From positions 1 through 64,000 of the IMG/VR virus record IMGVR_UViG_3300033066_001917: 64,000 nucleotides of DNA. The stretch is one strand, 5' to 3'. The notes beneath the pieces are model-generated. The model saw nothing but the letters and a program-made list of their open reading frames with translations. It was not told the origin of the DNA and did no database searches. A program made the translations under genes and the position numbers. Within the stretch, counting starts at the first letter, position 1; every line of letters begins with the position of its first letter. This document shows positions 2,840-3,001 of this stretch, in pieces. This DNA comes from a virus. Taxonomy: Duplodnaviria; Caudoviricetes.

Positions 2840-3001
2840 TTATCGACGAGTAACGTTGGCGATGCTGTTATGACGACCGAGCACGACGCGACCCGGCCCG
2901 TATTTGCGGCGAACCTGATCCACAATCTCGGCGATGGTTGCCCCATCGGCTACTTCCATCGAATCAATGGTCTTACCTTGAATCTGAACCGTGATGGTCA
3001 T
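2840..3001 (-). CDS. stand-alone LeuRS C-terminal-domain-like protein (53 aa)
   Basis: MTITVQIQGKTIDSMEVADGATIAEI...RVVLG...IANV resembles the LeuRS CTD pattern vvQvNGK.r..ievp.das.eei...kvi.v...lvNi. Confidence 0.6.
   Translation of the reverse strand: MTITVQIQGKTIDSMEVADGATIAEIVDQVRRKYGPGRVVLGRHNSIANVTRR

Follow-up and report, generated by a model that had tools for sequence, protein, structure and literature searches.

A phage microprotein with a hairpin resembling part of the leucyl-tRNA synthetase C-terminal domain, encoded behind a structured leader in a tRNA gene cluster

What might a protein of 53 amino acids do in the middle of a phage tRNA gene cluster? The question is raised by a short open reading frame (ORF) at 2840–3001 of a 64,000-nucleotide window that forms the first 64 kb of the 200,245-bp IMG/VR record IMGVR_UViG_3300033066_001917 (Duplodnaviria; Caudoviricetes). 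Because CheckV rates this record as 38% complete, the true phage genome may be larger, possibly much larger. A preliminary description of the DNA had likened the predicted microprotein, by eye, to the C-terminal domain (CTD) of leucyl-tRNA synthetase (LeuRS) and had proposed that it acts as a free, elbow-binding chaperone or protector for the neighbouring tRNA-like RNAs. Our best reading, which we hold tentatively, is that the gene product is a small accessory protein that binds RNA and has a hairpin like that of the LeuRS CTD.

The comparison with LeuRS was made against a set of CTDs that consisted of the Escherichia coli leuS tail, taken from the annotated K-12 record, and 44 diverse proteobacterial CTDs, later joined by six from viral contigs (50). 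It included the one relative of the microprotein, a 51-residue protein from a second phage population. In pairwise BLASTP against the E. coli CTD, the relative reached an E value of 4e-4 and the window protein 0.07. A hidden Markov model (HMM) of 44–50 CTDs assigned 21–23 bits to the relative and 11.5–12 bits to the window protein, scores that were attained by 0/5000 and 1/5000 shuffled sequences, respectively. When aligned to the CTD profile with hhalign, the microprotein scored 31.6–32.2 (P 2–4e-6, probability 88–89%) over residues 2–32 (31 columns); none of 400 column shuffles rose above 19.4, and the reversed profile reached 8.9. The same procedure gave 23.1 for ThiS (P 1.8e-4, probability 48%) and a noise-level 14.7 for MoaD, and the HMM of ThiS scored the two microproteins at 7.0 and 4.7 bits. 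At the sequence level, the LeuRS CTD is thus the best directed match of the microprotein, ahead of ThiS and MoaD.

The likeness is confined to one half of the protein. The pattern noted by eye holds for the N-terminal 31 residues, which comprise a VQ(V/I)(N/Q)GK hairpin and the start of a helix and score well above shuffles, but it fails for the C-terminal 20 residues. Within the first hairpin motif of the CTD, V-Q-V-N-G-K, both microproteins share the V, Q, G and K, and the N is kept in the relative and replaced by Q in the window protein. Of the 15 positions that are at least 85% conserved among CTDs from the first hairpin on, those retained are the hairpin V/Q/N/G/K, one Gly and one Asn. 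The isolated LeuRS CTD, and even peptides of its hairpins, are reported to be active on tRNAs in trans (PMC3927953, PMC4754043).

Several observations weigh against a kinship with LeuRS. The last 18–20 residues of the microprotein score −0.7 and −1.6 bits on the CTD HMM, under the 95th percentile of the shuffles. The second CTD hairpin, (R/K)-K-V-I-x-V-P-G-K-L-x-N-x-V, which forms the other half of the tRNA-elbow platform (PMC4754043), is not recognisable; of its conserved residues, K, I, V, P and G are absent and only the N is kept. The arginine two residues after G-K, present in 96% of the 50 CTDs and corresponding to Mycobacterium tuberculosis R921, which is reported to be crucial for aminoacylation (PMC3561953), is an isoleucine in the window protein and a valine in the relative. 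The microprotein profile is also thin, being built from two lineages only. Since the CTD hypothesis arose from viewing the same sequence, a correction for the number of families is in order: a P value of 3e-6 multiplied by ~25,000 matchable families corresponds to an E value of ~0.1, which is borderline. Finally, an NG-turn hairpin is common to ThiS and the CTD, so the motif may be convergent.

Searches of general libraries add to these points. LeuRS was never returned by Pfam, NCBIfam or sequence searches of the Protein Data Bank (PDB), and the best library rows were all sub-threshold and ubiquitin-like. In Pfam, the window protein matched SAMP2 at an E value of 0.01 (16.7 bits against a cut-off of 27); in NCBIfam, the best rows were MoaD_arch (E 0.043, 14.3 bits against a cut-off of 49.5) and SAMP2 (E 0.066). 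The S30/FUBI ubiquitin-like domain followed at 0.09, and TmoB at 0.098 with the relative's protein. With an E limit of 10, no PDB sequence matched the window protein, and the profile gave only weak, mixed rows. The nearest ESM Atlas shapes to the predicted fold are likewise ubiquitin families (TM 0.73, rmsd 1.8, 48 residues), and the top Foldseek match in the PDB is a 51-residue ubiquitin fragment, residues 1–51 (E about 0.7–1); all of these shape matches lie within the stated noise of the tools.

These rows define the main rival, a truncated ubiquitin-like (β-grasp) mini-protein that is unrelated to LeuRS and would contact protein, for example the 144-residue product of the next gene or a host protein, rather than RNA. 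Its attractions are the uniformly ubiquitin-like character of the library and shape matches, the ThiS alignment, which reaches strand 3, and the tight coupling of the gene to the downstream 144-aa ORF. However, every library row falls under its curated cut-off, the CTD profile outscores ThiS and MoaD in the like-for-like test, and the neighbourhood of the microprotein gene contains no recognisable E1-like, JAMM or sulfurtransferase gene. The fold model spans only ubiquitin residues 1–48 to 1–52, and a chain of 53 residues would leave no room for the fifth strand. We consider this explanation somewhat unlikely. One version of it, a carrier or modifier of the ThiS/MoaD/SAMP/Urm1 type, was rejected: both microproteins end in N-V-T-R-R, so that the T-R-R termini of the two lineages lack the C-terminal Gly-Gly.

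The structural comparison itself can accommodate either fold. A single-sequence AlphaFold (AF2) model of the microprotein has a pLDDT of 75 and contains strands at residues 2–7, 11–16, 37–41 and 46–50 and a helix at 23–34. The CTD is described as an α-β domain in which a four-stranded sheet of two strand pairs contacts the tRNA elbow (PMC3561953, PMC4754043). This published order of elements agrees with the modelled one, two strand pairs around a helix, so that a CTD-like fold is compatible with the ubiquitin-like shape matches. In the fold searches, no LeuRS chain stood among the 50 matches listed in each of three (Foldseek PDB, VIA-align wide and VIA-align second look). This absence does not count against the likeness: none of the matches is strong, and the CTD may be disordered in many of the LeuRS crystal chains. 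In the viral library BFVD, the only matches were small, uncharacterised phage proteins with E values of at least 0.05, and ESM Atlas searches by features gave 0.82–0.87, within the chance range.

The microprotein gene itself is well founded. As first described, the ORF occupies 2840–3001; it lies on the minus strand and has 53 codons followed by a TAA stop. An exhaustive phmmer search of 1.84 billion representatives found one true relative, and eight further copies of the same lineage came from contigs that carry a homolog of the 144-aa neighbour. This relative phage population (contigs L084–L091 and L002) has a 51-aa ORF in the same place, with the same aligned start and stop. The two proteins are identical at 26/51 aligned residues (51%), and the sole indel between the genes is 6 nt long and in frame. 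Nucleotide differences at codon positions 1/2/3 number 16/10/32, with pN 0.27 and pS 0.68, corresponding to a dN/dS of ~0.19 in which dS is saturated. On the strength of this ratio, the in-frame indel and the 51% identity, comparison of the two sequences identifies the microprotein as a real gene whose protein is under purifying selection. In the contig L002, the microprotein differs by four amino acids from that of the eight other contigs, and the homolog of the 144-aa gene contains an in-frame TAG (L002:868-969 and L002:698-853); this looks more like a contig error than recoding.

The family is very small and consists of two lineages. An index of 5.8 billion proteins, which is word-indexed and was queried with the protein and a three-sequence profile, returned only the window and the one relative. 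Scans of IMG/VR with the microprotein, its profile and the 144-aa neighbour found no further member, and the relative's protein, compared by tblastn with 50,697 GenBank phage records, had no match. A family this tiny, and a short ORF placed after a terminator-bearing leader and before the next gene, would suit a regulatory upstream ORF in which translation matters and the peptide does not, or a gene without current function. Against this, the substitution pattern described above indicates selection on the peptide, and the single-sequence model is confidently folded for its size. Such an explanation is very improbable.

The frame is also open upstream as far as a GTG at 3139 (99 aa). One gene caller chose a TTG at 3067 (75 aa), and on related contigs the callers chose starts that give 51 aa or 87 aa. 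Four arguments favour the ATG at 3001 as the start: the ATG of the relative aligns to it; a terminator-like hairpin (3052–3032) with a U-rich tail lies just upstream; the upstream alignment contains frame-breaking indels of 2 nt and 1 nt; and upstream conservation runs beyond the stop codon that closes the frame. The same four arguments rule out the longer products of 75, 87 and 99 aa. A +1-frame reading that ends in '...VDNGG' was also rejected, in that the relative keeps the 0-frame ORF and its stop and third-position differences dominate there. At the 3′ end, the segment 2838–2853, which covers the last four codons and the stop, is tandemly duplicated (16 nt) in contigs from three of four public runs; the duplication leaves the protein unchanged and widens the spacer to the 144-aa ORF from 11 to 27 nt.

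Upstream, the microprotein lies behind a conserved sequence that, by its alignment and predicted pairing, is a structured leader or small RNA. Over ~120 nt (3043–3160), identity to the relative was estimated at ~88–90%, and it amounts to 73–90% per 40-nt bin (36, 29 and 30 of 40), above the microprotein coding sequence, which is only ~60% identical between the lineages. RNAalifold predicts several hairpins in the leader with three compensatory pairs. In addition to the terminator-like hairpin, a long-range helix pairs 3069–3076 with 3039–3046 ahead of the U-tract. The leader matched no Rfam family at E up to 1, and its DNA patterns had no match in viral or metagenome contigs. RNA-library contigs overlap 3035–3157 and 2617–2857 at a depth of 2–6; these are assembled contigs and are uninformative on transcription, transcript ends and strand.

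The tRNA-Leu(CAA) gene that precedes the leader bears directly on the proposed link to LeuRS. The preliminary description was right that this tRNA lacks the long variable arm: its variable loop has 5 nt. The same tRNA-Leu precedes the leader and microprotein gene in the relative, and it is 80–87% identical to tRNA-Leu genes of Streptomyces phages. A type I tRNA-Leu(CAA) has been described for Streptomyces coelicolor, and in Streptomyces charging of type I tRNA-Leu is conferred by the leucine-specific domain of LeuRS rather than by the CTD (PMC6614811). This finding weakens any special tie of a CTD-like factor to the short-armed tRNA-Leu. By analogy, the type I tRNA-Leu may hint at an actinobacterial host.

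If the microprotein derives from LeuRS, it could in principle be one part of a split synthetase, a trans-acting, tRNA-holding tail for a phage LeuRS that has lost its own CTD. The N-terminal CTD likeness would fit such a role, and in a record that is 38% complete, a LeuRS gene could sit in the missing part. Yet the 200-kb record contains no LeuRS or class Ia synthetase domain (TIGR00396, PF00133, PF08264, PF09334), and the microprotein lacks a recognisable counterpart to half of the CTD. Seven viral LeuRS loci were fetched; the gene is whole in six of the seven, each of these six carries its CTD in cis, and their fetched flanks contain no free CTD-like ORF. We regard a split synthetase as highly improbable. 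Among the viral genes, a 666-residue huge-phage LeuRS frame on a 415-kb IMG/VR contig (L176:9143-11140) has a recognisable CTD at its end (V-S-V-N-G-K-R-R...). The CTD query also matches 18 phage-collection records, one annotated as leucine-tRNA ligase and the others listed unannotated; these were not used as evidence.

The features discussed here are collected in Table 1. On the minus strand, the order is tRNA-Leu(CAA), leader, microprotein, 144-aa ORF, tRNA-Glu and two tRNA-Ile, and it is the same in the relative. The 144-aa protein has a 63% identical homolog (P0009) at the same position in the relative and matches no Pfam or PHROG family. Its fold model (pLDDT 41) is unusable and was not used for fold searches, and a predicted complex with the microprotein scored 0.00, which weighs neither for nor against binding. 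In place of the HNH gene, the relative has a 69-aa ORF; in the window, the 3′ end of the HNH gene overlaps the opposite-strand tRNA-Leu gene by 22 nt.

Table 1 Features of the microprotein locus and selected genes of the 64-kb window
Feature	Position	Strand	Remarks
Microprotein gene	2840..3001	(-)	53-aa ORF; ATG at 3001, TAA at 2842-2840; 5.8 kDa
Conserved structured leader	3002..3195	(-)	several hairpins; long-range helix; terminator-like hairpin
Downstream ORF, 144 aa	2394..2828	(-)	starts 11 nt past the microprotein stop; own Shine-Dalgarno-like G-run
tRNA-Glu(UUC)	2273..2347	(-)	directly downstream of the microprotein/144-aa unit; same order in relative
HNH homing-endonuclease gene	3341..4057	(+)	PHROG 10822, E 1.8e-51; between tRNA-Leu and leader
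tRNA-Leu(CAA), type I	4036..4113	(-)	5-nt variable loop, A73, encoded CCA; upstream of the microprotein gene, same direction
ThyX with LAGLIDADG-like insert, possibly intein	37639-39492	(+)	
tmRNA, phage-encoded	39905-40278	(+)	
T4 Rnl1-type RNA ligase	58228-59442	(-)	

The non-coding parts of the cluster show a conservation pattern of their own. Between tRNA-Glu and the tRNA-Ile pair, ~400 nt are 95–100% identical to the relative, compared with ~60–70% in coding regions. This stretch is continuous in the relative (L084:6571-7006) and is split in the window (1558–1753 and 2074–2272, minus strand) by a ~280-nt insert that carries a 93-aa ORF (1765–2046). In the strain of run X3, the whole tRNA-Glu/tRNA-Ile interval is swapped for 245 other letters; neither form has an Rfam match. 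Between tRNA-Phe and tRNA-Leu, the segment 4119–4552 (minus strand) is 65–83% identical to the relative and contains tRNA-like sequences that escape ARAGORN under its default parameters. When introns are permitted and the threshold is reduced, the program reports a tRNA-Lys(UUU) at 4122–4309 that includes an insert of 108 nt.

Across the window, which encodes a tmRNA and seven tRNAs and includes a C5 DNA methylase among typical large-phage genes, the tmRNA, RNA ligase, ThyX and tRNA cluster point to a heavy phage investment in translation and tRNA repair. Near-identical DNA occurs in public metagenome runs labelled as wastewater, river and activated sludge. A small phage inhibitor or antitoxin of the Dmd kind (T4/RB69 Dmd, PDB 5HY3, 5I8J), directed against a host RNase or anticodon nuclease that targets tRNAs, would be in keeping with such an investment. 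We rate this role for the microprotein as quite improbable.

How, then, could the microprotein work? Our best reading remains the small accessory protein with a CTD-like hairpin, and structured-RNA binding in or around the tRNA cluster is tentatively its most likely function. The fold, the binding of RNA and any particular RNA target are inferred from the considerations above. The microprotein is predicted to form a mini-domain of two hairpins and a helix, of which the first hairpin (VQ-x-N/Q-GK) and the helix start resemble the first half of the bacterial LeuRS CTD, whose hairpin lies on the tRNA elbow. Its pI of 10.2 (11.7 in the relative) is as expected of nucleic-acid binders. The gene would be transcribed together with the 144-aa ORF, behind the structured, terminator-bearing leader and within a run of tRNA and tRNA-like genes. 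Candidate targets are tRNA-like elbows or T-loops of the cluster RNAs, or the microprotein's own leader; the protein would have an accessory or regulatory role. The putative role proposed at the outset, that of a free tRNA-elbow chaperone or protector, is plausible.

A more specific history, that the microprotein descends from a cut-down elbow-binding domain of LeuRS that was captured by a huge phage and now serves as a trans-acting handle for RNAs with a T-loop or elbow, is improbable. Were it so, the protein might hold or protect remodelled tRNA-like RNAs, stand in for the tail that a CTD-less phage LeuRS lacks, or recognise a tRNA-like element within its own leader and thereby regulate its synthesis.

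We regard the finding as a minor curiosity that lends itself to testing; it does not establish a new system. Should the microprotein prove to bind tRNA elbows, it would represent the first LeuRS C-terminal hairpin to stand alone in nature, a module studied in trans so far only as an engineered fragment that rescues defective mitochondrial tRNAs. It would also provide a handle on the function of unusual tRNA-like RNAs in huge phages, and a possible answer to how a CTD-less phage LeuRS holds its tRNA. If it is a truncated ubiquitin-like protein, it would be one more small orphan phage protein. Under either reading, the leader, the microprotein and the 144-aa ORF in the tRNA cluster form a compact unit that is amenable to bench experiments.

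Among known systems, the closest comparison is the LeuRS CTD itself (~60 aa; E. coli 4AQ7, Thermus thermophilus 2BYT), with which the microprotein shares the first hairpin motif, the next strand and the start of the helix, and which is likewise small, basic and tRNA-associated. In contrast to the CTD, the microprotein stands alone, without a synthetase body or W-P...D linker; it is ~10 residues shorter than the CTD core, and neither the second helix nor the K-V-I-x-V-P-G-K second hairpin can be recognised. With the ubiquitin-like β-grasp proteins (ThiS, MoaD, SAMP2, TmoB, ubiquitin and FUBI) it has in common, by sequence pattern and predicted shape, the N-terminal hairpin, the helix and the third strand. 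It differs from them in length (53 residues versus 65–80), in the missing fifth strand and Gly-Gly terminus, and in that no activating enzyme is encoded nearby. At the level of gene organisation, the tRNA gene cluster of T4, which includes the stable RNAs C and D, offers a parallel in that phage tRNAs are interspersed with small stable RNAs of unknown role; to this arrangement, the cluster described here adds two conserved protein genes and a structured leader.
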